Shown: piece after piece, positions 777 through 18,372 of the stretch
Numbering within the stretch: the stretch's first letter is position 1
How the letters are laid out: every line of letters begins with the position of its first letter
IMG/VR virus record: IMGVR_UViG_2926965794_000002
Coordinates: 1 to 64,000 of that record
DNA length: 64,000 nucleotides
Reading direction: 5' to 3' (one strand)
Origin: a virus
Lineage: Duplodnaviria; Caudoviricetes
Notes under the pieces: generated by a model
Seen by the model: only the letters and a program-made list of their open reading frames with translations
What the model was told of the DNA's origin: nothing
Database searches by the model: none
Translations under genes and position numbers: made by a program

Positions 777-790
777 CCAAGGATGGAGAC

Positions 791-919
791 ATGAATCCCC
801 CGGATAAATTCGCTTCGCAGCCGATCAAGGCCCCCAAGCTTAGCAAGCGAGCGATCGCTGCCATCCAACGGATCAAGAATTGGGAAGACGAAAGCGAACG
901 GAGCGCCCTGCAGCGATGA
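791..919 (+). CDS. Small hypothetical protein
   Basis: GGAG RBS, ATG 791, ATGA coupling to next ORF. Confidence 0.45.
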   Translation: MNPPDKFASQPIKAPKLSKRAIAAIQRIKNWEDESERSALQR

Positions 920-1212
920 CCAACCCGCAGCAGATGATCACGATGGACGAGCTCGAGGCCGGCAACATCGAACAGATGTGGCTGGAGGCGGTCGTCAAGA
1001 AGCTCGACCTCAAGGGAAAGCCCGGGTCGGAGATCACGCAGGAGCGAGTGAAGGACACCAACGTCACGACGCTCTGGCACAAGAACCAGCCTGTCGCGAT
1101 CGCGGTCCGCCAGCGAAATGACTGGAACTGGACCGCGCTGACGCTGGTCGAGATCCCGCCGATGAGGGCGGAATTGGCAGGAGCGGTAGGAATCGAACCC
1201 AGTGGCGTATAA
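916..1212 (+). CDS. Hypothetical protein reading into the antisense of a tRNA 3' fragment
   Basis: Coupled ATG, GC3-rich codons. Confidence 0.6.
   Translation: MTNPQQMITMDELEAGNIEQMWLEAVVKKLDLKGKPGSEITQERVKDTNVTTLWHKNQPVAIAVRQRNDWNWTALTLVEIPPMRAELAGAVGIEPSGV
1175..1201 (-). pseudogene. Isolated 3' fragment of a tRNA (Trp-like T-arm, acceptor strand and CCA)
   Basis: Reverse complement GGGTTCGATTCCTACCGCTCCTGCCA with no matching 5' half. Confidence 0.7.
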
Positions 1213-1624
1213 CGACGTCGAGAACATGCGGCGCTATCGGCGCGAGTGGTACCATCGCAACAAGGACTTTGCGAAGGCAAAACGCGCCGAGCAGAAAAGC
1301 CGCATCAAGGAATGGTTGGAAGAGTTCAAGCGAGGGCTGAAGTGCTCGGAATGTCCCGAGGATCACCCGGCGACTTTAGACTTTCACCATCTTGAGCCGG
1401 ATGGGAAAGATATCGGCGTTTCGCAAGCAATCACCGACGGATGGTCGATCGCCCGGATCAAGAGCGAGATGGCGAAATGCAAGGTGCTTTGCTCGAACTG
1501 CCATCGGAAACTACATCACTCTCTCGGGGATCGAGGCCGGCACCGGCGGCTAGAGTCGAACCAACCTGCAATGGTTTTGGAGACCATGCCGCGCCCAGCG
1601 CCCGCCGATTTACTCGCCGATTGA
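1202..1624 (+). CDS. HNH endonuclease (phage type)
   Basis: CSEC..LDFHH..KCKVLCSNCHRKLH; C-terminus reads through tRNA-Trp antisense. Confidence 0.85.
   Translation: MAYNDVENMRRYRREWYHRNKDFAKAKRAEQKSRIKEWLEEFKRGLKCSECPEDHPATLDFHHLEPDGKDIGVSQAITDGWSIARIKSEMAKCKVLCSNCHRKLHHSLGDRGRHRRLESNQPAMVLETMPRPAPADLLAD
1538..1609 (-). tRNA. tRNA-Trp(CCA), atypical (3-nt D-loop, ends CCG)
   Basis: ATGGT-CTCCAAA-ACCAT anticodon arm, TTCGACT T-loop, ATCGGCG/CGCCGGT acceptor. Confidence 0.75.
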
Positions 1625-1650
1625 ACCTCTAATTCCCCATGGAGACAGCA

Positions 1651-2040
1651 ATGACGGATGAAGAGACCTTCGAGGCGTTGGAGAAATACTTCGGCTGCAC
1701 CGTCCACGGCTGGCCATGCATCCCGCGGGCGCGCGCCAGGTGGTGGCAATTTCGTGCTCGCCGTGACGACCAGCTGGTCGACGGCGCCCTCGCCGCGATC
1801 GGCCGCGGCCCCTACACCGCCGAGATGAGCCGCGTGTTCTGGGAGCAGGTCCGCTACGGCCAGGACATCTGCGAAGACGCCGGCGGCTACGATTGGCGGT
1901 GCTGGTGCGCGGCGCTCGGCCTGCCCTTCCGGCAGCCGACGTTCACGTACAGCGGCTATGTCGCGCCCGGCGAGGACCCCAAGATCGGCGCTGCATATCG
2001 GGACATCTTCACGCAGCTCGGCGCCGGCGAAGGGATCTGA
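1651..2040 (+). CDS. Hypothetical protein; stop abuts tRNA-His CCA
   Basis: GGAG RBS at 1641; TGA 2038-2040. Confidence 0.7.
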   Translation: MTDEETFEALEKYFGCTVHGWPCIPRARARWWQFRARRDDQLVDGALAAIGRGPYTAEMSRVFWEQVRYGQDICEDAGGYDWRCWCAALGLPFRQPTFTYSGYVAPGEDPKIGAAYRDIFTQLGAGEGI

Positions 2041-2115
2041 TGGTCCTGACTGGGTGAATCGAACACCGCGTCTCCCGGTCCACGGCCGAGCGTCCTACCA
2101 TTGAACAAAGTCAGG
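2041..2115 (-). tRNA. tRNA-His(GTG), A73, C33
   Basis: Loop CCGTGGA; CCTGACT/AGTCAGG-A-CCA acceptor. Confidence 0.85.
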
Positions 2116-2125
2116 AGAGATTGAG

Positions 2126-2314
2126 ATGGCAACACCAGAACAGAAGGCGGCATCGCGGAAGGTGATGGATGCTGTCACGGCGCTCAACAGCGCGCTGAGC
2201 GATGCCGGCAGCGAAGGCCTGCACGTCCGCCTTGAGACCGTGAATGAGCTCGGTCGGCGCAATCCGAACTACGTCGTCGCCGAGATCGAGACCCGCGAGA
2301 CGGTGCTGCCGTGA
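2126..2314 (+). CDS. Small hypothetical protein
   Basis: AGGAG RBS overlapping tRNA-His 5' end; GTGA coupling to next ORF. Confidence 0.6.
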   Translation: MATPEQKAASRKVMDAVTALNSALSDAGSEGLHVRLETVNELGRRNPNYVVAEIETRETVLP

Positions 2315-2619
2315 GGTATCTCGTCCGCTGCTGCTGCGAGCCGGACAAGATCCTCGGCTATCTCACCGTCCCGCACGAAATGCGTAACGGCGAGCGCTAT
2401 CCGATTTGCCGCATGGATCAGTTGCTCATCAACGCCCGTCCCTTTGAACCCTCCGAGCTCGTCCATTCGAAGATCGAAACCGCGCTGTTTCGCACCCTGA
2501 TTAACGCGGACGGAAACCGCGAGATCGCCGTCTACTCCGATGATCGGCCGATCGAGTTTTGGCGTGGAGTTCGAGGTTTCGAGGAAGTGGTCGCAGGCAC
2601 TGGGGTTGAACCAGCCTAG
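2311..2619 (+). CDS. Hypothetical protein reading into tRNA antisense
   Basis: Coupled start; last codons overlap tRNA(CAT). Confidence 0.55.
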   Translation: MRYLVRCCCEPDKILGYLTVPHEMRNGERYPICRMDQLLINARPFEPSELVHSKIETALFRTLINADGNREIAVYSDDRPIEFWRGVRGFEEVVAGTGVEPA

Positions 2620-2662
2620 CCGCCCTTATGAGAGGCAGCCCCTACCCGACCGAGGGCCTGCG
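2588..2662 (-). tRNA. tRNA(CAT), Met or Ile2
   Basis: Loop CTCATAA; CGCAGGC/GCCTGCG-A-CCA. Confidence 0.8.
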
Positions 2663-2681
2663 AAAGGAAGGAATTCACGAA

Positions 2682-3113
2682 ATGCCGCGTCCGATAGACA
2701 AAGACCGCCAATTGACCGACCTGCTCGCAACTGCGGAAGCCTTCCGTGTCGCAATGATCGAGAGCGGTGCCGTGAACAGCGTTGGTCATGATCGATATTT
2801 CGATCAACTTCGCGCTTTGGAGCGCGCGCTTCAGCCGCTCAACTATCTCATTCCCCCGGATGACGTGAAGCCGGCCGTGGAATCAGACATCGCGATCGCT
2901 GTCACTATGCTTTGCCCGCGGCGAGACTGCTCCATCAAGATCAGGCGTGGCGAAGAAACCTGCATGGGGTGGCCCGGGCCCACCTATGACAGGGACGGCA
3001 AGCGAACCGACCGCGGCGATCCGAACCGAGTCCAATTCGCTGCAAGGTGTGAGCGATGTGAGAAGGCATGGTCCGTGCGCACTAGATACGAACAGATCGA
3101 GGATGTCCGATGA
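2682..3113 (+). CDS. Hypothetical protein with C-terminal Cys pairs (possible Zn finger); stop abuts tRNA-Gln
   Basis: CPRRDC and CERC; AAGGA RBS. Confidence 0.6.
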   Translation: MPRPIDKDRQLTDLLATAEAFRVAMIESGAVNSVGHDRYFDQLRALERALQPLNYLIPPDDVKPAVESDIAIAVTMLCPRRDCSIKIRRGEETCMGWPGPTYDRDGKRTDRGDPNRVQFAARCERCEKAWSVRTRYEQIEDVR

Positions 3114-3189
3114 TGGCAGGCGCGACAGGACTCGAACCTGTGGATGTCGGAATCAAAATCCGATGCCTTACCAACTTGGCTACGCGCCC
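3114..3189 (-). tRNA. tRNA-Gln(TTG)
   Basis: TCGGA-TTTTGAT-TCCGA; CCA end. Confidence 0.92.
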
Positions 3190-3194
3190 ATGAT

Positions 3195-3271
3195 TGGTCC
3201 TGCCAACGGGAGTCGAACCCGCGATGTCCAGCGTTGAAAGCGCCGTACCCTTTCCACCAGGCGATGGCAGG
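3195..3271 (-). tRNA. tRNA-Glu(TTC)
   Basis: CGGCG-CTTTCAA-CGCTG; CCA end. Confidence 0.88.
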
Positions 3272-3396
3272 CCGTTTGCCGCCCACAATTTCCGCGGGTA
3301 GGATGCCGATCGCCGGAACGTTGTTACCGCGGCGGCCGGCACTCGAGTGGAGGGCCCCCGGGGAGATTTCAGTCTCCTCGGGGTTTCCTTGGTGAT

Positions 3397-3470
3397 TGGT
3401 GCGGGCTGCCGGACTCGAACCGACTTAGCCTGGGTGGAAACCAGGTGATCAGCCTATGACCCAAACCCGC
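3397..3470 (-). tRNA. tRNA-Gly(TCC)
   Basis: CCTGG-TTTCCAC-CCAGG; CCA end. Confidence 0.88.
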
Positions 3471-3484
3471 GTAAGGAGTATGAA

Positions 3485-3700
3485 ATGGACGAGAACTCTC
3501 AGCTGATGTCCCTGCTCGAAGACAAAGCAAGGTCCCTGCGAGACGGCCACCTGACCATCCTGCGCTTCACGACAAACTGGCGGGTTGGTTTCGGTACGCC
3601 CACCGATCGCTACGACATCGGCAAGGCCGCCGAGGGACCGACATTCGCGGCGGCGGCGCGCAACGCATTAGCCAATCCCGAGCAGCACTGCCTCTATTAG
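3485..3700 (+). CDS. Small hypothetical protein; stop abuts tRNA-Ser
   Basis: TAAGGAG RBS; TAG 3698-3700. Confidence 0.7.
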   Translation: MDENSQLMSLLEDKARSLRDGHLTILRFTTNWRVGFGTPTDRYDIGKAAEGPTFAAAARNALANPEQHCLY

Positions 3701-3787
3701 TGGCGGAGAGGACAGGGATCGAACCTGCGCGTCCCGAAGGACTCGGCGCCTTAGCAAAGCGCTGCCTTACCGCTCGGCCACCTCTCC
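3701..3787 (-). tRNA. tRNA-Ser(GCT)
   Basis: Loop TTGCTAA, long variable arm, G73-CCA. Confidence 0.93.
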
Positions 3788-3801
3788 AATTGGAAACGAT
3801 C

Positions 3802-4044
3802 ATGGAAATCCTGCACAGATCCCTTGCTGACCCCGTCGCCGGAAGGATCACGGCGGACGGATACGTTGAGGGTCCAGCCAGCGAAGTGTCGGCCCAGGCG
3901 AGCTACACCTTCGAGGCCGACATTGATGGTCGCTGGCACCGCTGGACCGGGCAGCGCCCTGAGATCGTCGGCGATCGCGCGCGCTTCTGGCTGCGCGACG
4001 GAACACCGATCGGAAGCACCGAGCTCCGCAGATCTCCGGATTGA
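3802..4044 (+). CDS. Small hypothetical protein
   Basis: ATG 15 nt past tRNA-Ser 5' end; 80 aa. Confidence 0.55.
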   Translation: MEILHRSLADPVAGRITADGYVEGPASEVSAQASYTFEADIDGRWHRWTGQRPEIVGDRARFWLRDGTPIGSTELRRSPD

Positions 4045-4156
4045 CCGCCGGCCTCGCCTGTCCCTAATTGCGCGCGCGCCCCGAGGGAGGGTCTGTCGCA
4101 GTCGCTCGGGACGCACGCCCGCTCTTGGCCGCACCAGGAGCGGGCATTTTCATGCA

Positions 4157-4233
4157 TGGCGATCGCCGCCGGACTCGAACCGGCAACCTCCGCGGTAGGA
4201 ACGCGGCGCTCTGTCCAGTTGAGCTAGGCGACC
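4157..4233 (-). tRNA. tRNA-Arg(CCT)
   Basis: CCGCG-TTCCTAC-CGCGG. Confidence 0.93.
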
Positions 4234-4290
4234 GTTGATGCAGGCCTGCCGAGCAGCTACGATCCGAGCTTTCCAAACGGGGTCTTTTGC

Positions 4291-4866
4291 GTGTGGCAGT
4301 GGCGTAGGAAAGCGGCGGGGTGGGCTCCCATCATCGGTTGGTTCTCCGTACTCATCGGCCCGTCCGCAGCCGAACTGTTGAAGCGGTGGATGGAGCGAAA
4401 CGGGTACTTCGATCATCCGGACCAAGGGGTTGCGTGGCTCGTCTCCGTAGTGGCCGGCCTAGCCCAGTCGCACTGGTTCTATCCACTCCTCGCGTTCCTG
4501 TTTGGTCTGTCGATCGGTCTTTGGGCCGATCGGGTCCTGCGCCGGCTGGCGAATGAGCAAGGTGGCGAACTCACAAACCTAGGGCGCTCGCTGCGCGGCA
4601 TGGCAGAGAGCGTGCGGCAAAGCCAAGGTGGCTTCAGAAGCACCTGGCCCGAGAATGTCGAGCACCTTCGCGGACCTCTCGAATCCTATTTTCTCACGCT
4701 GAAAAGCGATTGGAAGATCGCGCCGCTGCCGGCCTCGGTCTTCGAACTGAACCATGGGGCGCAGATCCTGATCGAATACCTTGATCATGTTGGCTCGCAC
4801 CTGATGGGGCGGCAGTTGAAGGCCGCGCAGAACAAGGCTCGCAATTTGGCGGCAGAGATCGGCTGA
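4291..4866 (+). CDS. Membrane protein with N-terminal TM helices
   Basis: Hydrophobic segments; stop 3 nt from tRNA-Arg CCA. Confidence 0.7.
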   Translation: MWQWRRKAAGWAPIIGWFSVLIGPSAAELLKRWMERNGYFDHPDQGVAWLVSVVAGLAQSHWFYPLLAFLFGLSIGLWADRVLRRLANEQGGELTNLGRSLRGMAESVRQSQGGFRSTWPENVEHLRGPLESYFLTLKSDWKIAPLPASVFELNHGAQILIEYLDHVGSHLMGRQLKAAQNKARNLAAEIG

Positions 4867-4869
4867 TCG

Positions 4870-4944
4870 TGGCGAGCGCACGAGGACTCGAACCTCGATT
4901 CCGGGCTTAGAAGGCCCGCGCCTATCCCGTTGACGGATACGCCC
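4870..4944 (-). tRNA. tRNA-Arg(TCT)
   Basis: CGGGC-CTTCTAA-GCCCG. Confidence 0.9.
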
Positions 4945-5005
4945 TTTTCGTCGGCATGCAAAAGATCTGAAAAATAATCCTCGGTTTTGGCGTTTGAGTG
5001 CGCGT

Positions 5006-5392
5006 ATGCCATATCAGCGCTTCTTCATAGTCGGCGGACCGGCCCGTGAACGCTTGAAGCGCTTCATCGCCGAGACCGGAAAGCGACTCCACTCGGAAAA
5101 GATGCTGTTTCGCAGGGCCGGGTTTGTAGCCCGCCGCTACGGTGAACCGATCTCGGCCTGTCCGACGAACCTCGGCGGGTTTCCCAACGTGCATTGGCTC
5201 GAGGGATATGCCGGCAAGATCGCACCGAGCCGTGACGTCATCGACGGCGCCTTCAACATGACGCCGGCGGAGCACGTTGTAGCCTTCACCGACTGGACAT
5301 ATTCGCTTGGCCTGCCGGCAGAGATGGCAGCAAAACTGGTTGCTGGCGTTCGGTCGGGATATCGCACTGATGTTCTACCGATCGTGCAATGA
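5006..5392 (+). CDS. Hypothetical protein; stop abuts tRNA-Cys
   Basis: 128-aa ORF filling the inter-tRNA gap; TGA 5390-5392. Confidence 0.55.
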   Translation: MPYQRFFIVGGPARERLKRFIAETGKRLHSEKMLFRRAGFVARRYGEPISACPTNLGGFPNVHWLEGYAGKIAPSRDVIDGAFNMTPAEHVVAFTDWTYSLGLPAEMAAKLVAGVRSGYRTDVLPIVQ

Positions 5393-5467
5393 TGGAAGCC
5401 CCGGCCGGTGCTACCCCGGCTCATAGCGGTTTTGCAGACCGCCGCGTTCCTGTTTCGCCACGGGGCC
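5393..5467 (-). tRNA. tRNA-Cys(GCA) with non-canonical T-loop GGTAGCA
   Basis: GCGGT-CTGCAAA-ACCGC; U73-CCA. Confidence 0.85.
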
Positions 5468-5471
5468 AAAT

Positions 5472-5549
5472 TGGCAGGGGATGACGGATTTGAACCGCCG
5501 ATACCGCGTTCAGAGCGCGGCGCTTTGGGCCAGGCTAAGCTAATCCCCG
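5472..5549 (-). tRNA. tRNA-Gln(CTG)
   Basis: CCGCG-CTCTGAA-CGCGG. Confidence 0.9.
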
Positions 5550-5555
5550 TCAACA

Positions 5556-5634
5556 TGGTCAGCGCGGGTGGATTCGAACCACCGATCCCCTGCTTCCAAG
5601 GCAGGTAGGGACGGCCAGGCTCCCCTACACGCTG
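5556..5634 (-). tRNA. tRNA-Pro(TGG)
   Basis: CCTGC-CTTGGAA-GCAGG. Confidence 0.9.
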
Positions 5635-5639
5635 ATAAC

Positions 5640-5716
5640 TGGCCTTCCGGACAGGACTCGAATCTGCATACCTTCGCGTTCGTAGCGCGCTGCTCCACCA
5701 GTTGAGCTACCGGAAG
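5640..5716 (-). tRNA. tRNA-Arg(ACG)
   Basis: Loop CTACGAA; CCA end. Confidence 0.87.
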
Positions 5717-5911
5717 ATGATTTCTCGCCTCGCCGAGGTTTCCCCTCGACTTCTCGTCTCGATGCGCGCGGCGCGCTTCGCCTCAGACCGGCCGATCGCT
5801 CCGGTCCGCCTCGAGATCACGTCCAGCGCTGCGCAGATCCGCGCGCGACCGAAGAAGATGCCGGCACTGACCGACTCTCCACCGTGTCGCCTCCTCGCAC
5901 CCGCTTCGGAT

Positions 5912-5986
5912 TGGCGCAGCCAACGGGACTCGAACCCGTGTCGACCGGTTGAGAACCGGGCATCCTGACCACTAGACGATGGCTGC
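5912..5986 (-). tRNA. tRNA-Glu(CTC)
   Basis: Loop TTCTCAA; CCA end. Confidence 0.92.
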
Positions 5987-5993
5987 TTGGAAA

Positions 5994-6067
5994 TGGCTCC
6001 CCGATCAGGACTCGAACCTGAATGAACCGGTTAACAGCCGGGTCGCTTGCCATTAGCGGATCGGGAA
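5994..6067 (-). tRNA. tRNA-Asn(GTT)
   Basis: Loop CTGTTAA; G73-CCA. Confidence 0.9.
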
Positions 6068-6074
6068 ATGACGA

Positions 6075-6150
6075 TGGTGGAGACGCGGGGACTCGAACCC
6101 CGGACCGACTGCTTGCAAAACAGCTGCTCTCGCCGCTGAGCTACGTCCCC
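6075..6150 (-). tRNA. tRNA-Ala(TGC)
   Basis: Loop TTTGCAA; G3:U70. Confidence 0.93.
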
Positions 6151-6204
6151 AATTGCTTTACAAAACCGCCGTTTCGCTTGTCGGAAACGGCGTTTCCCTT
6201 GTCA

Positions 6205-6279
6205 TGGTGCCCGGAAATGGAATCGAACCACTGACGCGCACGCCTTCAACGTGCCGCTCTACCGCTGAGCTATCCGGGC
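6205..6279 (-). tRNA. tRNA-Phe(GAA)
   Basis: GCACG-TTGAAGG-CGTGC. Confidence 0.92.
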
Positions 6280-6311
6280 AATTTGCGAGTTTGCGCAAAT
6301 GCGCAAGTTGA

Positions 6312-6385
6312 TGGTGCGGGCACCGGGAGTCGAACCCGGGCTGTGAGAGTGGCACTCTCACCGACTACCGTAATCATTTACCCGC
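6312..6385 (-). tRNA. tRNA-Gly(GCC), G32-C38
   Basis: TGAGA-GTGCCAC-TCTCA. Confidence 0.85.
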
Positions 6386-6390
6386 GAATT

Positions 6391-6475
6391 TGGTGGGTAA
6401 CCCTGGAATCGAACCAGGAAGGCGCATAGGCGCAGGCGTTACAGGCCCGCTCAGTCCCCAGACTTGGCGTTACCC
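6391..6475 (-). tRNA. tRNA-Tyr(GTA)
   Basis: Loop CTGTAAC, long variable arm, A73-CCA. Confidence 0.87.
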
Positions 6476-7610
6476 AGAGTGTGCTTACGTCGGGCAGGAC
6501 TCATGCCGGCTCTCCCCCACCCAAAGGCCCCGAACGATGCTCCGTGATCCGGGCCGCTAGCCCAAGGGCTGGCGATAACCGACAGTTTATGTTTACGATC
6601 ACCGGAGGTTACCCCTCTCAACCGGCAGACCCAGCGCTAAGGCAAACATGAAGATCGACTCATTCAAGAATGAACTGCGGAGCGCCCTCCAAACAATTTG
6701 CGCTGAGAATAAATGGAGCTTCGACAACGTTAAACAACGCGGGATGGCTTTTGAAAATTGGTGCTTCAATTTGCTGAGCGAGCGCTATCCCGCGGCCGAT
6801 AACGATCCCTCCTTGTGCATCATCCGAGGAGATGACGCTGGGATCGACATCTTTTTTGAAAGCAAGGAAACGGACGAGATCTATATCGTCCAGTGCAAGC
6901 ATCCCAGAATTGCTGGCTCCGATCCAATCCCGGAAGGAGACGTGAAGTCGTTTTTTTCAAACTATAAGCTATTGAGCGACCGCACGTATCTAGCCCAGCG
7001 AAAGACCACCAACCCGAAGTTGGAGGAGCTAGCTAATGAGTTCGAGTATTGGCTCAAGCAGCGCTACCTGATTCACTTCATCTTTATAAGCTCCGGAGAG
7101 TCGTCAGACAAAACCGACGCACTGATCGACAAATTCACGAAGGACAACCAAAATCAAAACGTCAAGTTCGACGTTTTGGACATCTCAGGGCTGAGGGATG
7201 AATTTGTTTCGGTAAAAAGCATCGAGGAGAAATATCCCGATACAATTAGTCTGACCCTAGCTGAAAATCATTTCATGCAACCAGACGGCACACTACGCAA
7301 TCTCACCTTTGCGATCCGCGGCAACGCTCTCAAGCAGATCGCCATGGATCACAAAGATAGTCTTTTCAATTGGAATATCAGACGTTTCTTAGGGCGCAAG
7401 GGTGAGGTCAACACTGGCCTCAACAAGACGCTTACCGATGAGCCACAAAATTTCTACTATTTCAATAATGGCATATCCGCGCTTTGCGAAGACTTCGAGT
7501 TCAATCCCAAGACAGGAAAACTGGTCATTCAGAAGTTGCAGATCGTGAACGGAGCGCAGACGGTTGGCGCGCTCAAGCACGCAATAGTCGATAAATTGAA
7601 AGACACTCTA

Positions 7611-8458: not shown

Positions 8459-9279
8459 TAGTTCTTGTAAAACTTACGGCCGTAAAGCATGCGACCCGAG
8501 AGAAGGGTATAGCGGCTTCCTTAATCAAGACCAATAATACGCAAAATACCCTTCGGGTGCCGGACTTTCGCTCAAACGATCCGATACAACTTTGGCTTGA
8601 ATCTAAGTTCAAAGCGACAAAGCCACGCGGAGACATGGCTCAGATCGCATACGGCAGAAAGCGTCCCTACCCTCGCGCCAACTCGACAACGTCGGTCCTC
8701 AAACTACAAGACCTCGGCAAAATAAGATATGCTTGGTATCACGACCCACGCATTCCGATTTCAGATCCAGCAAAGCTGTTTCAATTGCCGGAAGAGAACG
8801 GGCTGTACGGCTACTCTTTCGGAGTAGATGGAGACATCACCGAAATGTGGTCGGAGCAGCAATTCAAGGAGACCCTCTTGGCCATACACGCGTATGACAA
8901 GATAGTCGCTGAACTGGAGAAGCTTCAAAAGTCTAACGAGGACCTCAAGCAAGTGAGCCGTCTGAAATATTACGGCCTGAAGCTATTCAAATTCTACGTC
9001 GACCAGATGCTCCCATCGACACTCGACGTAACAATGGAGGACCTCTTCGCGTTTGGCGGAAAGTTCAACTCTTTTTTCGACAGAGCAAATCGAATCATTG
9101 GACTAACACTTTCGCAATCATACAAAGAAATTCTGACTCGCGAGGAAGGAACAGCCTTTTCACTTCCGCGCGACGCAAAGGTTTGGGAACTGGTGAAGCG
9201 GAAATTCGACGACAATCTCGCAGTGTTTCGACTTGCGCAACAGCAGTGACTCTGGCCTCGGCCCCTAACGGCGGCAGAT

Positions 9280-9356
<77 letters not shown>

Positions 9357-9472
9357 ATAATCGTGCAAAGGGTACAAACTCCTTTGCGGCGCAGACGTAC
9401 ATCCGGCCTGGCGCGATCGTTTGGCATCGTTAGCCCGACGACTAAATTTCGTTCATGGCCGAACTGAGTCAT

Positions 9473-9560
9473 TGGCGGGCAGCCGAGGAATCGAACCCCC
9501 ATCGCTTTCGCGAGCCGCGGTTTTCAAGACCGCTGTCAGACCATTCCGACTAGACTGCCC
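9473..9560 (-). tRNA. tRNA-Ser(TGA)
   Basis: Loop CTTGAAA, long variable arm. Confidence 0.88.
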
Positions 9561-9564
9561 AATG

Positions 9565-9642
9565 TGGCTTCCCCTGCTGGACTCGAACCAGCGGCCTCGG
9601 CATTCGGACGGCCGCGCTCTGACTCCGCTGAGCTAAGGGGAA
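9565..9642 (-). tRNA. tRNA-Arg(CCG)
   Basis: Loop GTCCGAA with a 31-39 mismatch; CCA end. Confidence 0.8.
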
Positions 9643-9815
9643 AAACTAATGATCCCGTCTGCGCGTCCCCCTATCGCCTGTAGTGGGGACGTCTTTTTTG
9701 GAGGCACGAGAGTAAGTACGCACCCTAGTTGCCAAACTCTCTCAAGATGCGGTCGCGGTCCTGCTCGTGGAGGGCGAGTTTCCTCACGGTTGCTACGCAT
9801 GTGGTGAGCGAGGCG

Positions 9816-10760
9816 TCAGGGCAGCTTCTGCTCAGCCTCAGCCAGAAAAAGGATGGTCGAGGCCGTTAGATGAAGGACGTAAGCCACCAGTTCTTTCGGA
9901 ATTTGAGCCGAGGGGGCAGCACCCGCCCCGTGGCCACCTAACCGATTTCTCGCGGTTGGCACGCCCGATTCCAACACGCTACGGAGGCCGTTGAAGTGCG
10001 TTTGCCAGAAGCTGGGTATGAGGCCATTGTCGTAGCAGGCCCTGATGAGTTCACTTGCAGTGGCATTGGCACTAATTGCCCATCCTCGCTTCGCGCACAT
10101 AATTTTCATCGTGCTTTCGAAAGCCTTGTTACAATTTAGCAGAGCCTCGGCATGTTTACCGTGCCGGTAGCTCTCATGCGCATCCAAGAACTCTTTCTGG
10201 GCATTTGCGTAACGAGCATTCCGCAAGAGTTGTAGCGCAGGCTTCACGATCTCTGTGTGCGTTAGCTGATTGTCGATGCGGATGATTTTTCCGTCAGCAT
10301 ACTCGTAACCGACAGCATTCTCCTTGAACCGAGCGTTCAGCTCAGAAATTGCATCATCGGCGATTTCTTCAGCGTTGCGACGATTCAGATAATTCCATTG
10401 ACGAGTGTAGTTCTCGATGACGGTGGCGGTGATCTCAATTACGTCCAGGACGCGCTCGACGTTCGCTTCCGTCAAGAAGAACTCGCACAGCTCTCCGAAG
10501 GCGTTGCGGCTATCATAAGGGGTGCGGTTGTTCTTTGTGAGAGTAAAGACTTGATACTCACGACGCAGTATCTCGACAATATCCTGATAGGTAGATCGGA
10601 TCTTGTCTTCGATACTGACTGCCGGATTGCCAATCGCATCGGTCCAGATGTGGATGATCTGGACGCGAAGGCCTTCAGGTACCTTGTCGTAAGTGTACAC
10701 TTCGGCGGGAACGCCTCGTTCGGCCTTTCGCCTTTTCGAGAACAGGTTGAAGATTGCCAT
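9816..10760 (-). CDS. STM4504/CBY_0614-like AbiJ-N plus HEPN-like abortive infection protein
   Basis: LFSKR..VYTYD..P..LRVQI N-terminus; C-terminal RNRLGGHG (Rx4-6H). Confidence 0.75.
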   Translation of the reverse strand: MAIFNLFSKRRKAERGVPAEVYTYDKVPEGLRVQIIHIWTDAIGNPAVSIEDKIRSTYQDIVEILRREYQVFTLTKNNRTPYDSRNAFGELCEFFLTEANVERVLDVIEITATVIENYTRQWNYLNRRNAEEIADDAISELNARFKENAVGYEYADGKIIRIDNQLTHTEIVKPALQLLRNARYANAQKEFLDAHESYRHGKHAEALLNCNKAFESTMKIMCAKRGWAISANATASELIRACYDNGLIPSFWQTHFNGLRSVLESGVPTARNRLGGHGAGAAPSAQIPKELVAYVLHLTASTILFLAEAEQKLP

Positions 10761-10779
10761 CTCGGCCTCCGGGAACGAC

Positions 10780-11106
10780 GGGATTTATACCCGACAGAGT
10801 TCCTTGCAAGAAGGTTGATGACGTCAGAACGGCTCCCGCGAGGGTTGCTAGACGGCCTTTTCCCAAGATTTCTTCATGCCCCTGCCCGTCCTTGCCGGCT
10901 CCTCGCTTACCGTTGTCCTTCGCGGGAGCGGATGCCAGCGGCTTGGGCATTCATGGCGGTCGGTCCAGCTTTTAAAAGCCTCGTCTGCAAACTGCCACCA
11001 CATCGCGCATTCAGGGAACGGGCACCGCCCAATGTCCGCGTCGCCGCGGCCGCTGCAGGAAATCAGAATCTACGCACCGCCGGCGGTGATCGCAATCGCC
11101 GCCGGC
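10780..11106 (-). ncRNA. Candidate structured ncRNA downstream of the HNH gene
   Basis: No credible ORF; 10-bp long-range stem 10832-41/10920-29, crossing pairing 10862-67/10942-47, hairpin 11079-11106. Confidence 0.4.
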
Positions 11107-11110
11107 TGGC

Positions 11111-11647
11111 TTATTTCTCGAGCTCGACATCCCAGTACAGGTAGTCCTGCCAGGACTCGTGCAGGAAGTTCGGCGGGAAGAGCCGCTGCGCCGCCAGCAG
11201 GTCATGCTGGCTGGGCTCGAACGGCGCCCTCAGCGGCTTCCAGATCTGCCGATCCTTGAGCATGTTGCACGGGCTGCATGCCGCAACGATGTTTGTCCAT
11301 TCGGTCTTGCCGCCGAGCGCCCGCGGCACGACGTGGTCGAACGTGAGCTCGCCGCGGAGGTGCTGCTCGCCGCAATACTGGCAGCGGAAGCGATCGCGGA
11401 GAAAGACGTTAAACCGCGTGAAGGCGACTCGAGCCGGCGGCCGGACATAGTCGCGCAGCGCGATGACCGACGGCAGCCGCATAGTCGTCGACGGACTCCG
11501 GATGACTTGATCGTACTCCGCGACGACGACGTGAGATCCCCGCACCACTGCCTTGACGGAGTCTTCCCAACCGAACAGCGACAGCGGAAAGTAACTTAAG
11601 GGTTGGAAGTCGGCGTTGAGAACCAGCGCCGGACTTGCGGCAAACAT
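11111..11647 (-). CDS. McrA-like HNH endonuclease
   Basis: LVLNADFQPL, FTRFNVFLRDRFRCQYCG, LTFDHVVPR, WTNIVAACSPCN. Confidence 0.92.
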   Translation of the reverse strand: MFAASPALVLNADFQPLSYFPLSLFGWEDSVKAVVRGSHVVVAEYDQVIRSPSTTMRLPSVIALRDYVRPPARVAFTRFNVFLRDRFRCQYCGEQHLRGELTFDHVVPRALGGKTEWTNIVAACSPCNMLKDRQIWKPLRAPFEPSQHDLLAAQRLFPPNFLHESWQDYLYWDVELEK

Positions 11648-11711
11648 CGTCGACCCCCTTTGATTGCGTTGCGGTTTCTTGCTTCAAAGAAGAAGCGAGG
11701 ATGATTTACCG

Positions 11712-11786
11712 TGGTAGGCGCAGCCGGATTCGAACCGACGACCGAGCCGTTATGAGCGGCTGGCTCTACCGCTGAGCTAGACGCCC
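11712..11786 (-). tRNA. tRNA(CAT), probably Ile2
   Basis: AGCCG-CTCATAA-CGGCT, Ile2-like body. Confidence 0.85.
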
Positions 11787-11790
11787 GAAT

Positions 11791-11867
11791 TGGTCGGCGT
11801 GGCAGGATTTGAACCTGCGGCCCCCTGCTCCCGAAGCAGATGCGCTACCAGGCTGCGCCACACGCCG
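11791..11867 (-). tRNA. tRNA-Pro(CGG)
   Basis: Loop TTCGGGA. Confidence 0.93.
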
Positions 11868-11902
11868 GAAATTGCTAATTTGAGGACAGTAAGGAGTACC
11901 CA

Positions 11903-12178
11903 ATGTCTAATAAGCCCTCGAACGACTGCCCATCCCCGGCATGTAAGGGGAAAAGCTACATGCAGAGACCGCTGAGCCCTGATTTCTGGAAGACAATGTC
12001 GGCAGCTGAGCAGCGACGGATCTACTCGACAGGAGACACTCTCACCGGCATCGGCAGCGAGGCGATGCATTGTCACCACTGCGGGTCCGTCTATCTGAGG
12101 TCGACGAAGGAATGCAGGATCGTCGGCAGGATCGATGAAGACGACGACGGCGGTGAACAAAAATGGACACCGGTCTAG
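11903..12178 (+). CDS. Small Zn-ribbon-like protein
   Basis: CPSPAC and CHHC; TAAGGAG RBS. Confidence 0.65.
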   Translation: MSNKPSNDCPSPACKGKSYMQRPLSPDFWKTMSAAEQRRIYSTGDTLTGIGSEAMHCHHCGSVYLRSTKECRIVGRIDEDDDGGEQKWTPV

Positions 12179-12184
12179 CCAAAC

Positions 12185-12258
12185 TGGCGCCCCTGACGAG
12201 GATCGAACTCGCCTTCCCGCATCGACAGTGCGGTCCCTTCCCAGATGGGTACAGGGGC
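12185..12258 (-). tRNA. tRNA-Asp(GTC)
   Basis: CCGCA-CTGTCGA-TGCGG; G73. Confidence 0.88.
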
Positions 12259-12364
12259 AGTCAGCTGCGACACTTGGTCCACGCCGTCAGAATAGAAGCA
12301 ATTTTGGGATCGCGGTACGCTACCTGGCGTTGCAAGGCTGTCCAATCAGAACGTGGAGGCCCAA

Positions 12365-12796
12365 ATGCGTATTTTCATTCTTCTTGTGACCTTGTTAGCG
12401 ATCGCGCCTGCACTAGCCGCCGACATGCCCAATACGAAGCGACCACGCGGCGTCCTGAACTGCACTCCGGCTGATGGGGTATATTTGTGCAGGGCAGATT
12501 TTCATTTGTCGTGCGACAAAGGAAAAGTAATACCCTTCCCGGTACCCGGCAAGGCGATCGACAATACCGACTACTTCATTCCCGACGTAGGCGATTTGAT
12601 TCCTGGCACCGCAGATTGCGTGACGCAGGAAGTGAAAGGCACCGGGTACATCGATCTCCTGGATGCAAATCGGCGGCATCTCAAGATCCACTATGGTTGT
12701 GAGGCGACATATACTGATGACGCGTTTGCCTATGGGTACTGCAGCGTGCAGTCTTACGACGTAATGCGGAGACGCGAGTCCTCGCCGAGAATGTAG
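12365..12796 (+). CDS. Secreted Cys-rich protein
   Basis: Signal peptide MRIFILLVTLLAIAPALA; GGAGG RBS; 6 Cys. Confidence 0.7.
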   Translation: MRIFILLVTLLAIAPALAADMPNTKRPRGVLNCTPADGVYLCRADFHLSCDKGKVIPFPVPGKAIDNTDYFIPDVGDLIPGTADCVTQEVKGTGYIDLLDANRRHLKIHYGCEATYTDDAFAYGYCSVQSYDVMRRRESSPRM

Positions 12797-12805
12797 ATCG
12801 ATTCA

Positions 12806-12886
12806 TGGTGGGCCGGCAGGAATCGAACCAGCATGGTTTCCCGTCGGCCCCTCAGACTAATGCGTCTACCGTTTCGCCACGGCCGC
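12806..12886 (-). tRNA. tRNA-Leu(GAG), degenerate or pseudo
   Basis: Loop CTGAGGG; mismatches in anticodon and T stems; acceptor 1 nt short. Confidence 0.65.
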
Positions 12887-12894
12887 CAGCCGCT

Positions 12895-13323
12895 TCACTT
12901 CCGCAATTTACAAGGATTGCCTTTCTGGCTGCACTCGTAGATCGCTTGCGAATAACCGGTGAACGAGGCAATAGCGCCCCCAAATCCGATTACTGCGCCC
13001 GTAATAAATACGGTGAAGATCGTCGATAGCCGTTTGTCCGCCAAGATCTTCAATCGCTCTTCTGGCTTATCGCCGGTGATGATCCGGTTTATCGCTTCTT
13101 CAGAATTGCTCCAGACGATTATCAGCGCGATACCCGCGCTCAGCAAACCGAACGTACCAGTCCCCAGCGCGAGAAGGGATGAGGAATCCGTGCCCTTGTC
13201 CTTCATAAACGCAACAGCGGTGGCCAACACGCCGATGTTTGCGAGCGCAACCGTGTTGGCCACGCGGTACTTGAGTTCAGCCCATGCCTGCACAAGTTTG
13301 AGCTCATATTCTCGTAGCTTCAT
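12895..13323 (-). CDS. Membrane protein (about 3 TM)
   Basis: Hydrophobic helices; lower GC. Confidence 0.65.
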   Translation of the reverse strand: MKLREYELKLVQAWAELKYRVANTVALANIGVLATAVAFMKDKGTDSSSLLALGTGTFGLLSAGIALIIVWSNSEEAINRIITGDKPEERLKILADKRLSTIFTVFITGAVIGFGGAIASFTGYSQAIYECSQKGNPCKLRK

Positions 13324-13423
13324 CGTGTCTTCTTGCGAACTATCCACCTAACCGCCCTCCTTCGATTCTCCCCCTCTGGTTGTACCAGCTTTTCCGCCTC
13401 GCGCGCATGCCTCGCGCAAGTGA

Positions 13424-13499
13424 CAGAGGACTTGCTCGGACTCGAACCGACGATGGCTTGCGCCGACGGATTAAGAATCCGCGCTGGGGGCACAGGTCC
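13424..13499 (-). tRNA. Degenerate tRNA-Lys(CTT)-like gene with long variable arm and truncated D-arm
   Basis: GCGGA-TTCTTAA-TCCGT, GGC-GCAA-GCC arm, TTCGAGT loop, no CCA. Confidence 0.55.
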
Positions 13500-13503
13500 G
13501 TGA

Positions 13504-13594
13504 TGGTGGACCGGGCGGGACTCAAACCCCCGATGTGGCCGTGAGGCCAGCCGGATTAAAAGTCCGGGCCGTTCGTCGCTACGGTAACCGGTCC
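13504..13594 (-). tRNA. tRNA with Lys(TTT) anticodon and long variable arm
   Basis: GGACCGG/CCGGTCC-A-CCA; CCGGA-CTTTTAA-TCCGG; TGGCC-TCAC-GGCCA arm. Confidence 0.8.
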
Positions 13595-13770
13595 ATCGTA
13601 TCGATGGGTGCGGCGGCCAGCCGCTCCGGTTTGGTGTGACGCTCTACGATCGCGTCGGCCTTTGCCTTCGCGCGCGCCAGCGCCGCCTGGCTCTCGATCG
13701 AGAGGAGGTGCACGCCCGGCGGCAGGATCGCCGACGGCACGCGCTGCATCAGCGTCGTCAGAACAACCAT
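13579..13770 (-). CDS. Small hypothetical protein, co-oriented with the tRNAs
   Basis: GAGGAGG RBS; 63 aa. Confidence 0.5.
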   Translation of the reverse strand: MVVLTTLMQRVPSAILPPGVHLLSIESQAALARAKAKADAIVERHTKPERLAAAPIDTMDRLP

Positions 13771-13788
13771 GATCGTCCTCCTCGTTGT

Positions 13789-13863
13789 TGGTGCACGCTG
13801 CTGGAATCGAACCAACTGCCACTCGCTTATCAGGCGAGGCCCTCACCGGTCGGACTAACGTGC
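13789..13863 (-). tRNA. tRNA-Ile(GAT)
   Basis: CTCGC-CTGATAA-GCGAG. Confidence 0.85.
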
Positions 13864-13894
13864 GTGATCGAAGTTGTGCAAAAGTTGCACGAGT

Positions 13895-13969
13895 TGGTGC
13901 GTCCGGACCGGATTGAACGGCCGACATTCGCCATGTCATAGCGATGCTCTCCCACTGAGCTACGGACGC
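13895..13969 (-). tRNA. tRNA-Val(GAC)
   Basis: Loop ATGACAT. Confidence 0.9.
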
Positions 13970-13973
13970 GAAT

Positions 13974-14048
13974 TGGTGCGCGCCGACGGGATCGAACCGC
14001 CGACATCCTGTGTGTAGGACAGGCGCTCTACCGCTGAGCTAGGCGCGC
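13974..14048 (-). tRNA. tRNA-Val(TAC), C33
   Basis: CCTGT-CCTACAC-ACAGG. Confidence 0.9.
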
Positions 14049-14165
14049 GTGACTTCCGCTTTTTCCTGCCTCGGGACGCTTTCCCATAGAGGCCGAAAAT
14101 AAAGCTGCTCGACCCTTTCCGGTTTGGCCTCGCGGGCGCGATTACCCAGTAGGAGGACCAAAACC

Positions 14166-14468
14166 ATGATCGACGATGACGATTTCGAAGAGCGCTTCGA
14201 GGAATTCTGCGAGCTCACCGATGATCAGGTCGACGCCGTGCTCGAGCGCGAGATGGCCGAGTACGTCAGATGGTGGAACACGCTGACCGCGATCCAGCAA
14301 TACCGGATCAGCCGGCGGACAGCGGTCGAAGGTTGCCTGACCTGGCGCAAGACGATCCGTGCCGGCTTCGACAGCGAGTTCTTCTTGGAGCAGCTGCGCA
14401 GCCGACAGAAGCGGCTGCTCAAGCTGCGGATCGAACTCGCGACCGGCGTCTATCCGGGCTCAGCGTGA
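14166..14468 (+). CDS. Hypothetical protein; stop abuts tRNA-Leu
   Basis: AGGAGG RBS; TGA 14466-14468. Confidence 0.7.
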   Translation: MIDDDDFEERFEEFCELTDDQVDAVLEREMAEYVRWWNTLTAIQQYRISRRTAVEGCLTWRKTIRAGFDSEFFLEQLRSRQKRLLKLRIELATGVYPGSA

Positions 14469-14547
14469 TGGTGCCCCGAGCAGGATTCGAACCTGCAAGG
14501 AAGACTGTTTTGAGCAGCCGGCGTCTACCGAATTCCGCCACCGGGGC
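14469..14547 (-). tRNA. tRNA-Leu(CAA) lacking the long variable arm
   Basis: GGCTG-CTCAAAA-CAGTC; Leu-type D-arm; about 6-nt variable region. Confidence 0.85.
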
Positions 14548-14555
14548 AGTTGTAA

Positions 14556-14639
14556 TGGTGCGGACGGAGGGGATCGAACCCACACTCCGAAGAACCGGTT
14601 CCTGAGACCGGCGCGTCTACCAAGTTCCGCCACGTCCGC
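14556..14639 (-). tRNA. tRNA-Leu(CAG)
   Basis: CCGGT-CTCAGGA-ACCGG. Confidence 0.9.
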
Positions 14640-14644
14640 ATTGA

Positions 14645-14720
14645 TGGTGCTGTCACCAGGGCTCGAACCTGGCGCCTCGACCCTACCAAGATCGCGCTCT
14701 ACCCGATGAGCTATGACAGC
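14645..14720 (-). tRNA. tRNA-Thr(GGT)
   Basis: Loop TTGGTAG. Confidence 0.9.
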
Positions 14721-14724
14721 GAAG

Positions 14725-14799
14725 TGGTGCCCGCAGCAGGGCTTGAGTCTGCGCGCGTCCGCCTACAATGCGGCTGCTCTCCATCTGAGCTATGCGGGC
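14725..14799 (-). tRNA. tRNA-Thr(TGT), degenerate T-loop
   Basis: Loop ATTGTAG; T-loop CTCAAGC. Confidence 0.78.
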
Positions 14800-14804
14800 T
14801 GACC

Positions 14805-14879
14805 TGGTGCCGGCGGCCAGATTTGAACTGGCGACCTTCGCGTTACGAGTGCGCTGCGCTGCCACTGCGCCACGCCGGC
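14805..14879 (-). tRNA. tRNA-Thr(CGT)
   Basis: Loop CTCGTAA. Confidence 0.88.
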
Positions 14880-18304: not shown

Positions 18305-18372
18305 GCGCCCGAGATTCGACAATGGCCACGCCGGCACGTATCTTGAACTGGGGCTTTGGCGTGGAGTTGCGT

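Follow-up and report, generated by a model that had tools for sequence, protein, structure and literature searches.

How does a dense array of phage tRNA genes come to be interleaved with open reading frames (ORFs) that lie on the opposite strand and that, in several cases, end exactly at the CCA end of a tRNA gene? The question is raised by the virus record IMGVR_UViG_2926965794_000002, a single contig of 109,940 bp classified in IMG/VR as a provirus, whose first 64 kb are called here the window. The element is a siphovirus-type prophage of approximately 110 kb from an alphaproteobacterium. Its array comprises 35 tRNA genes in 13.3 kb, every one of them on the minus strand, and all 20 amino acids are covered. 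The first-pass annotation had likened this locus to a gene-cassette array in which folded tRNA genes, in the manner of integron sites, capture and shuffle promoterless ORFs. In the best reading of the comparison reported here, the array is instead a tRNA cluster doubling as an accessory-gene hotspot, a product of ordinary phage mosaicism and compaction around conserved tRNAs, shaped by homologous and homing-endonuclease-assisted exchange and by selection for intact tRNAs. We put the probability of this reading at about 0.7.

Junctions of a conserved tRNA order

The tRNA genes were called with ARAGORN (33 genes, 1539–14879), and two that it missed, Cys-GCA and Thr-TGT, were added from Rfam; the calls bore out the first-pass observation that all the tRNAs are on the minus strand. 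Relatives were collected from IMG/VR and from genome contigs, using an ORF of the array, the portal protein and a conserved HNH-domain protein as queries, and they formed a family of (pro)phage contigs of about 90–130 kb. In the phage collection, a near-identity DNA search returned matches to single tRNAs only, and the best portal-protein match had at most 37% identity. Eleven further arrays with a common tRNA order were found in related (pro)phages of Alphaproteobacteria. The shared order starts with Trp-His-Met-Gln-Glu-Gly-Ser-Arg-Arg-Cys-Gln-Pro-Arg-Glu-Asn-Ala-Phe-Gly-Tyr-Met-Ser-Arg, is followed by an HNH-domain gene, and continues with Met-Pro-Asp-Leu-Lys-Ile-Val-Val-Leu-Leu-Thr-Thr-Thr. 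The locus was recognised as a phage tRNA cluster by its dense tRNAs on a single strand, by the phage structural genes of the record (terminase (TerL), portal, protease, capsid, tape-measure and tail genes, all on the minus strand at 29.5–57.6 kb) and by its conservation in the 11 other arrays.

The lengths of the junctions between tRNAs were bimodal, either 0–10 nt or 150–2800 nt, and nearly all junctions were occupied in one array or another and empty elsewhere. Two relatives (L071 and L076) had almost fully compact strings of tRNAs, and the genes flanking these strings run in the tRNA direction. As expected from the first-pass proposal, the ORF content between the tRNAs was not fixed but highly variable, and the homology with the nearest relative stopped within 1–2 nt of the tRNA ends at several junctions. 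Breakpoints in this position are not diagnostic, because selection for intact tRNAs predicts them under any mechanism. By comparison of the sequences, junction content was shown to turn over by ordinary mosaicism, DNA being gained and lost where no tRNA is destroyed. The ORFs of the large gaps comprised 70 singletons and nine families, with each family confined to one junction; no family was found at two different junctions, either by family clustering or by tblastn of the ORFs of the window phage against 14 arrays, which is a small sample.

The cargo was as heterogeneous as first described, and included defence genes. The window carries an AIPR gene and an AbiJ-like gene, and the relatives carry genes resembling those of the cyclic-oligonucleotide-based antiphage signalling system (CBASS), toxin–antitoxin genes and RNA-repair genes. 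Encoded in the junctions of the relatives were SMODS with patatin, SMODS alone, AAA ATPases, Ro60/TROVE, RtcB, HigB, HicB, NUMOD3 and an outer-membrane barrel protein. Unrelated genes, defence genes among them, were thus found between conserved anchors in related elements, the pattern of an accessory or defence hotspot. The HNH-domain gene (11111–11647, minus strand) was the sole junction occupant conserved throughout the arrays. The CBASS-like genes were located within single junctions, a SMODS nucleotidyltransferase with a patatin phospholipase at 12391–14228 (−) of L068, and SMODS with a small partner at 8755–9621 (−) of L069. The Gln|Pro junction of three relatives contained, on the tRNA strand, a gene for Ro60/TROVE-vWA or RtcB (13310–14929 (+) in L065, 15617–16966 (+) in L068 and 7803–9269 (+) in L076). 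The presence of these genes suggests that a function in RNA repair or quality control may be tied to the array.

The interleaved ORFs were scored for coding capacity by codon log-odds, the structural genes (GC3 of 0.8–0.9) serving as the training set. Positive scores were obtained for the plus-strand ORFs 880–1212, 1639–2040, 2126–2314, 2311–2619, 3485–3700, 4291–4866, 4994–5392 and 14124–14468, and two plus-strand ORFs (4994–5392 and 14166–14468) had homologues in other phages at 55–84% identity. Because of these scores and homologues, most of the interleaved plus-strand ORFs can be regarded as real genes. Most of the small ones had no match in Pfam or PHROGs. The first-pass statement that most interleaved ORFs are on the plus strand held for the majority, the exceptions on the minus strand being 9816–10760, 11111–11647, 12895–13347, 13579–13770 and 15033–15227. 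Three tRNA-poor relatives (L156–L158) retained homologues of the plus-strand ORFs starting at 2126, 2682, 3802, 4994 and 14166, in an unchanged order, between the HD gene (246–776), which is the conserved left flank of the plus-strand operon, and the DNA ligase gene (19163), which ends the syntenic series. Since the order is kept in these tRNA-poor relatives, the plus-strand ORFs are best described as a syntenic gene series independent of the tRNA ends, in which tRNAs and ORFs are gained and lost separately. An insertion of the tRNAs into a pre-existing plus-strand operon was also considered and rejected, as the compact arrays share the same tRNA order.

The tRNA genes themselves were mosaic. 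When the window tRNAs were compared with their positional counterparts in any one relative, the identity toggled between 95–100% and 60–75%, tRNA by tRNA, and some alleles of the window phage were common to distant arrays. Chimeric tRNAs with a fixed crossover point were sought and none was found; the mismatches of the divergent alleles were spread over the stems.

Stop codons at the CCA ends

The five stops that had been reported at 0 nt from a CCA end were all exact (2040/2041, 3113/3114, 3700/3701, 5392/5393 and 14468/14469), and the corresponding trailers read TCA, TCA, CTA, TCA and TCA on the tRNA strand. The near stops, given as 3–9 nt away, were located at 3 nt (4866), 6 nt (12178) and 9–10 nt (12796). 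Three ORFs had been described as running into a tRNA antisense. This was true of 1202–1624, which runs through a variant tRNA-Trp, and of 2311–2619, which extends 32 nt into tRNA-Met; the third, 880–1212 (or 916–1212), meets only a 26-nt remnant of tRNA-Trp. The starts at 2126, 2682, 3485 and 3802 did lie 11, 20, 15 and 15 nt beyond the neighbouring tRNA 5′ ends, and an AGGAG-like ribosome-binding site (RBS) was present at the first three of these four.

Docking of the plus-strand stops near the CCA ends is real. The stop was 0–4 nt from the CCA in 14 of 25 independent plus-strand ORFs, with three more reading into the tRNA, versus 1 of 20 minus-strand ORFs with a stop 0–4 nt from a tRNA 5′ end (Fisher p = 3e-4). 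Minus-strand ORFs halted 8–70 nt ahead of the next tRNA, and plus-strand ORFs started 3–90 nt from the tRNA 5′ ends. Exact abutment at 0 nt is explained by the composition of the trailers, because triplets complementary to a stop codon are equally frequent with and without an ORF. In the 12 arrays, TCA, TTA or CTA directly followed the CCA at 18 of 127 tight junctions, where no ORF is possible (14.2%), and the share among large gaps was 15.3%, or 17 of 111 (Fisher p = 0.86). The caveat already raised in the first-pass annotation, that the trailer may itself supply the stop, was therefore correct for the exact abutments, and the ORF-free junctions at 6309, 13501, 14553 and 14642 do read TGA/TAA-TGG.

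The docking near CCA would follow from compaction. Under this process the CCA end may act as an absorbing boundary towards which the plus-strand stops are pushed; they would be pressed against it because an RBS is needed upstream, nothing is needed downstream, and a stop cannot overlap the TGG. Since the first base of the trailer was A or T in approximately 80% of cases in every junction class, and TCA was the second commonest trailer triplet, the trailer often offers a ready-made TGA.

Allele exchange and competing explanations

One tRNA gene of the array, tRNA-Trp, is split. A gene for an HNH homing-type endonuclease (1202–1624, plus strand; PHROG 3106, 3e-29) stands in place of its 5′ two-thirds, the segment 1202–1635 of the window replacing positions 3304–3347 of the relative G001; the HNH gene is not at this site in G001 or G002. 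The 3′ 26 nt of the tRNA-Trp (1176–1201, minus strand), comprising the T arm, the acceptor strand and the CCA, match the tRNA-Trp 3′ end of both relatives. This remnant still encodes the C terminus of the small plus-strand ORF 880–1212 (codon score 26.6), which takes its last codons from it; the counterpart in G001, with 92% identity, terminates inside an intact tRNA-Trp. The negative codon score of the HNH gene suggests a foreign origin. A divergent short tRNA-Trp(CCA) gene (1539–1609, minus strand) arrived with it, and is overlapped by the end of the HNH ORF. This variant, of 71 nt, has a short D arm, lacks an encoded CCA, and was found by ARAGORN and not by Rfam. A similar short tRNA-Trp, also invisible to Rfam, was seen at 2093–2164 of L154; both genes are 71–72 nt long, with a reduced D arm and the anticodon at position 30, and the variant is known from two or more arrays. 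No direct repeat of the kind left by an integrative element was recognised, as the remnant 1176–1201 has only the T-loop in common with the 3′ terminus of the variant Trp, and the record contains no integrase. A nuclease gene within tRNA-Trp, in a region that is polymorphic among the relatives, has the placement expected of a homing-endonuclease locus.

Phage_integrase (PF00589), Resolvase (serine recombinase) and RVT_1 (reverse transcriptase) had no match in the 109,940-bp record, the same Phage_integrase search being positive in 14 of 14 control genomes, and the one transposase present is encoded by an insertion sequence (IS) inside the AIPR gene. A general repeat search of positions 1–15500 found no attC-like repeat; all repeat families were tRNA-derived, and no other shared element was present beside the ORFs. 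Elsewhere, the record encodes DnaB, a primase, a beta clamp, methylases, a PD-(D/E)XK exonuclease and an AAA_23 ATPase, the last two being candidate recombination genes.

These results bear directly on the integron-like proposal, in which a site-specific recombinase would insert and excise promoterless ORFs at folded tRNA genes, docked at the CCA. The variable junctions, the homology breaks 1–2 nt from tRNA ends, the stops close to CCA and the insert 4994–5392, which is exactly one ORF set at a CCA end, are all consistent with such a system. We nevertheless consider it very improbable: the recombinase and reverse transcriptase profiles are absent from the record, the lone transposase sits in the IS, the tRNAs are the only repeats, and no ORF family occupies two junctions. 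In addition, the order of the ORFs is kept in relatives without flanking tRNAs, terminator-like hairpins and RBSs mark some occupants as units of their own, and exact abutment is at the trailer baseline. A role of the tRNAs as integron-like capture units was therefore not supported, and the recombinase looked for over the whole record, tyrosine or serine, did not appear. A broader version of the proposal, that they are recombination or homology units, was sustained in part: the single-tRNA mosaic agrees with a homology unit, and the lack of a recombinase speaks against dedicated capture. The homology unit is plausible, yet amounts to ordinary phage mosaicism. Stops abutting CCA and breakpoints at tRNA ends can arise from trailer composition and selection, and alone are no sign of site-specific capture.

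We propose that the array works as follows. The minus-strand unit would comprise the tRNAs, a 64-aa gene, the HNH-domain gene and a few other minus-strand genes, driven from a promoter-like site at about 15.5 kb, and its transcript would be processed by RNase P and 3′ trimming enzymes. The small ORFs would belong to a convergent plus-strand gene series extending from the HD phosphohydrolase (246) to the DNA ligase (19163). Modules made of a tRNA allele, alone or together with adjacent ORFs, may be reassorted by homologous recombination between co-resident relatives through shared tRNA alleles, and double-strand breaks made by homing-type HNH nucleases, one of which has split tRNA-Trp, may assist the exchange. 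Relaxed homologous recombination is known to build the mosaics of temperate phages (PMC3945230), mycobacteriophage tRNA clusters contain HNH genes (PMC6409571), and SegB cuts within the tRNA genes of T4/T6 and drives both the inheritance of the tRNA region and its amplification (PMC13096335, PMC2330249).

The SegB precedent of cleavage within tRNA genes (PMC13096335, PMC2330249) could be taken further, to a model in which homing endonucleases are the main engine. The tRNA genes of relatives would be cut by nucleases of the HNH type, possibly also by GIY-YIG/NUMOD ones, and repair would copy the donor alleles and ORFs; the deep allelic divergence, as cut-resistant alleles, and the ORF turnover would both be accounted for. 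The HNH gene 1202–1624 in the broken tRNA-Trp beside a divergent Trp allele, a second HNH gene in G001 at the Glu|Asn junction, the NUMOD3 protein of one relative and the mosaic tRNA alleles point in this direction. The array, however, holds one clear homing-type gene, most occupants are not nucleases, cleavage by the HNH protein is putative, and instead of chimeric tRNAs with a fixed breakpoint the mismatches extend across the stems, so that nuclease drive as the main engine seems unlikely. A coupling of the two strands is quite improbable. Here the antisense tRNAs would punctuate the plus-strand messages, stabilise their 3′ ends or mark sites for their processing, or pairing would aid the formation of the tRNA 3′ ends, and docking would be selected. 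It would fit the 14 of 25 plus-strand stops at 0–4 nt from CCA as opposed to 8–70 nt between minus-strand ORFs and the next tRNA, the gaps made of exactly one ORF, and the repeated docking of unrelated ORFs at one junction. The same ORFs exist without an adjacent tRNA in L155–L158, however, and compaction alone predicts the asymmetry between start and stop sides. The geometry of an antisense ORF at CCA with a short 5′ leader and no promoter would also suit, by inference, retro-insertion, in which tRNA 3′ ends prime the reverse transcription of messages and the tRNA-CCA becomes joined to the ORF antisense. This is extremely improbable, given a record without reverse transcriptase, stops at 0 nt that would need messages ending exactly at the stop codon, and ORFs syntenic with those of tRNA-free relatives.

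Several points weigh against mosaicism with compaction as a complete account. Exact abutment concerned five of the eight plus-strand ORFs facing a CCA end in the window, in excess of the 14% baseline (binomial p = 0.002), and over the 12 arrays a marginal excess persisted, with 5 of 16 independent ORFs (p = 0.065). Different arrays have unrelated ORFs at the Gly|Ser junction, docked at 0, 2 and −54 nt, and a homologue of the first at 1 nt, which implies that compaction acted repeatedly or that the modules are old. Several gaps consist of a single ORF and nothing else, ATG to TGA, which is tighter than usual; the Trp|His gap is an example, at 402 nt in L067 and at 273 nt in L068. The strong plus-strand bias of the occupants in the clade of the window phage is explained by argument alone, the expression of both strands is something we infer from the sequence, and the comparison is limited to 12–15 arrays. 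It is conceivable, although quite unlikely, that each tRNA with its CCA-docked ORF is a swappable unit kept by a dedicated process (nuclease cuts, structure-directed recombination or antisense-tRNA punctuation) rather than by selection alone. The array would then be a two-strand cassette system, allowing the temperate phages of Alphaproteobacteria to exchange genes for defence and counter-defence junction by junction.

Gene content, expression signals and comparison with known systems

All tRNA genes listed here are on the minus strand and were called by both ARAGORN and Rfam unless indicated. Beyond the variant tRNA-Trp, the left part of the array contains tRNA-His(GTG) at 2041–2115, tRNA-Met(CAT) at 2588–2662 (ARAGORN), tRNA-Gln(TTG) at 3114–3189, tRNA-Glu(TTC) at 3195–3271, tRNA-Gly(TCC) at 3397–3470, tRNA-Ser(GCT) at 3701–3787, tRNA-Arg(CCT) at 4157–4233 and tRNA-Arg(TCT) at 4870–4944. 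The tRNA-Cys(GCA) at 5393–5467, missed by ARAGORN, was called by Rfam with 40.4 bits, and its fold and anticodon were checked. It is followed by tRNA-Gln(CTG) at 5472–5549, tRNA-Pro(TGG) at 5556–5634, tRNA-Arg(ACG) at 5640–5716, tRNA-Glu(CTC) at 5912–5986, tRNA-Asn(GTT) at 5994–6067, tRNA-Ala(TGC) at 6075–6150 (ARAGORN), tRNA-Phe(GAA) at 6205–6279, tRNA-Gly(GCC) at 6312–6385, tRNA-Tyr(GTA) at 6391–6475 (ARAGORN), tRNA-Met(CAT) at 9280–9356, tRNA-Ser(TGA) at 9473–9560 and tRNA-Arg(CCG) at 9565–9642. On the other side of the HNH-domain gene are tRNA-Met(CAT) at 11712–11786 and tRNA-Pro(CGG) at 11791–11867, and a weak Rfam match to YrlA (11762–11823) coincides with these two tRNAs. The remaining genes are tRNA-Asp(GTC) at 12185–12258, tRNA-Leu(GAG) at 12806–12886 (ARAGORN) with its CCA end at 12806, tRNA-Lys(TTT) at 13504–13594, tRNA-Ile(GAT) at 13789–13863, tRNA-Val(GAC) at 13895–13969, tRNA-Val(TAC) at 13974–14048, tRNA-Leu(CAA) at 14469–14547, tRNA-Leu(CAG) at 14556–14639, tRNA-Thr(GGT) at 14645–14720, tRNA-Thr(TGT) at 14725–14799 (Rfam, 44 bits, fold checked, missed by ARAGORN) and tRNA-Thr(CGT) at 14805–14879, the first tRNA in the direction of transcription. 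A degenerate sequence resembling tRNA-Lys(CTT) (13423–13498, minus strand) keeps the anticodon arm and the T arm, with a poor D arm and no CCA. It occupies the site of the Lys(CTT) gene of the relatives and is probably a decaying tRNA.

On the plus strand, ORF 1639–2040 (133 aa, codon score 35.7) abuts the CCA of tRNA-His and is found in G001 at the same junction with 88% identity. ORF 2126–2314 (62 aa), with an RBS, starts just beyond the tRNA-His 5′ end and has homologues in L067, L069 and L158. The next two ORFs are 2311–2619 (102 aa), which enters the tRNA-Met antisense and has a homologue with 39% identity in L067, and 2682–3113 (143 aa, the longest frame starting at 2628), whose stop abuts the CCA of tRNA-Gln and which has 78% identity in L069 and 73% in the tRNA-poor L158. 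ORF 3485–3700 (71 aa), also with an RBS, abuts the CCA of tRNA-Ser; its L068 homologue (80% identity) is at the same junction and stops 1 nt from the CCA. ORF 3802–4044 (about 80 aa) shows 66% identity to an ORF of L156, and ORF 4291–4866 (191 aa), stopping 3 nt from a CCA, is probably a membrane protein. ORF 4994–5392 (132 aa) exactly fills the space between a conserved spacer element and the CCA of tRNA-Cys; its homologues have 65–84% identity, and in L157 and L158 they occur without tRNA-Cys alongside. The spacer element, of 40–49 nt (TTGCAAAAGATCTGAAAAATAATC...), lies at 4945–4993, upstream of tRNA-Arg(TCT), and is conserved in six arrays. A plus-strand promoter-like match (4951–4978) overlaps it.

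The AIPR-family abortive-infection gene (6648–9249, plus strand) is split into 6648–7607 and 8462–9249 by an IS4/IS5-family insertion sequence of about 854 bp (7608–8461, plus strand) with 18-bp terminal inverted repeats (DUF4096, 4e-27; DDE_Tnp_1, 3e-15). Positions 1–81 of the Pfam AIPR profile are matched in the first part and positions 86–273 in the second, with a weak MzaE-like match. The AbiJ-N-terminal/DUF7014 protein of the STM4504 family (9816–10760, minus strand; Pfam 1e-35 and 9e-26, NCBIfam NF046078 6e-106) had no homologue in the relatives by tblastn against 14 arrays, and is defence-type cargo specific to the window phage. The conserved HNH-domain protein (11111–11647, 178 aa; Pfam HNH_5, 2.5e-14), counted in 10 arrays, is approximately 60% identical to the product of a gene in hundreds of alphaproteobacterial genomes. 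Its NCBIfam matches were weak, and limited to the HNH region of IscB/Cas9d.

In the right part of the array, the plus-strand ORF 11903–12178 (91 aa, RBS) has CxxC pairs in a zinc-ribbon-like arrangement and stops 6 nt from a CCA, with a codon score that is not supportive, and the plus-strand ORF 12353–12796 (147 aa) has a signal-peptide-like N terminus, a stop 9 nt from a CCA and a negative codon score. The minus-strand ORF 12895–13347 (150 aa, codon score 15.6) is probably a membrane protein. In the Lys|Ile gap, a small conserved ORF of about 63 aa with an RBS (13579–13770, minus strand, in tRNA orientation) belongs to a family of five at the same junction, with third-position changes in the alignment; a structured RNA was considered for this gap and rejected, as the gap behaves as a small minus-strand ORF. 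The plus-strand ORF 14166–14468 (100 aa, the longest frame starting at 14124) abuts the CCA of tRNA-Leu(CAA) and has 17 homologues at 55–75% identity. In L154 the homologue is at the same junction and stops 1 nt from the CCA; in L155 and L156 no tRNA adjoins it. The conserved 64-aa ORF 15033–15227 (minus strand, codon score 16.5), with 69–91% identity in six relatives, immediately precedes the array in the tRNA direction. At the left flank, the HD-domain phosphohydrolase (246–776, plus strand; Pfam HD_4 3e-16, PHROG 990 2e-33) has 69–73% identity in G001 and G002. Downstream of the array, a gene for an SOS-response-associated peptidase (SRAP) and one for an ATP-dependent DNA/RNA ligase occupy 17537–19765 on the plus strand. 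The host is probably Bradyrhizobium-like, since a 9.15-Mb contig carries a protein identical to one from the window phage and relatives of this phage were found in Bradyrhizobium and other Alphaproteobacteria.

A promoter-like motif, TTGACG-17 nt-GCATAC (15478–15512, minus strand), is nearly invariant in six arrays and is a candidate promoter of the tRNA-strand unit. The next element in the six relatives is a leader of about 280 nt, ahead of the conserved 64-aa ORF and the array. The leader, which is highly conserved in these relatives and lies with the motif in 15228–15512 (minus strand), could be a regulatory RNA. On the plus strand, terminator-like hairpins of 12 bp with a T-rich tail were located at 3356–3383, just before the CCA end of tRNA-Gly, and at 4117–4145, before that of tRNA-Arg(CCT). 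Overall, scans with sigma-70 and terminator consensus sequences gave no enrichment over shuffled sequences, and only the two hairpins and the conserved motif were relied upon. Both strands are probably transcribed in several units; the strength of the two hairpins argues for several plus-strand units rather than one long transcript.

The resemblance to integron arrays lies in the short heterogeneous ORFs, mostly promoterless, between structured repeats, and in a content that differs among relatives. Unlike in integrons, there is here no IntI, attI, attC or re-use of cassettes elsewhere, and the place of the repeats is taken by functional tRNA genes of the opposite strand. In the hotspots of prophages and satellites such as P2/P4, conserved anchors enclose unrelated defence genes. 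The same is seen here with AIPR and AbiJ, and with the CBASS-like genes of the relatives, but the P2/P4 hotspots number one or two per genome and the array would provide about 35 micro-hotspots, one per tRNA junction. Animal mitochondrial genomes, known for tRNA punctuation, have ORFs butt-joined to tRNA genes with 0-nt spacers and some antisense tRNAs. Similar 0-nt joins exist in the array, where by contrast all tRNAs are on the opposite strand and any role in processing is putative. The closest phage parallels include the tRNA region of T4/T6 with SegB (PMC2330249, PMC13096335), which also combines a phage tRNA cluster, an embedded nuclease gene and tRNA genes serving as recombination targets or anchors, and in which the cluster is likewise linked to conflict with host defence. 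The present array differs from it by its 35 tRNAs, its siphovirus-type prophage, a nuclease that is HNH and not GIY-YIG and whose cleavage is putative, and interleaved ORFs mostly on the opposite strand. The clusters of mycobacteriophages, T5 and other phages hold 15–37 tRNAs with hypothetical ORFs and HNH genes (PMC6409571); unlike these, the array is convergent with its interleaved ORFs, and their stops are docked at CCA. This architecture, with convergent accessory genes, CCA-docked stops, a single-tRNA mosaic and defence or RNA-repair genes in individual junctions, is unusual, and no earlier description of a fixed tRNA order with mosaic alleles and junction content across a family was found in the literature searched. 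The array offers a natural system for the study of conserved RNA genes as anchors of mosaic exchange, of the limits of two-strand compaction and of homing nucleases driving tRNA allele diversity. Phage tRNA clusters are usually regarded as helping translation or as decoying defences that cut tRNA; here each of about 35 junctions also serves, on a small scale and independently of the others, as a landing site for accessory genes, in a tRNA order that stays fixed while the alleles reassort.

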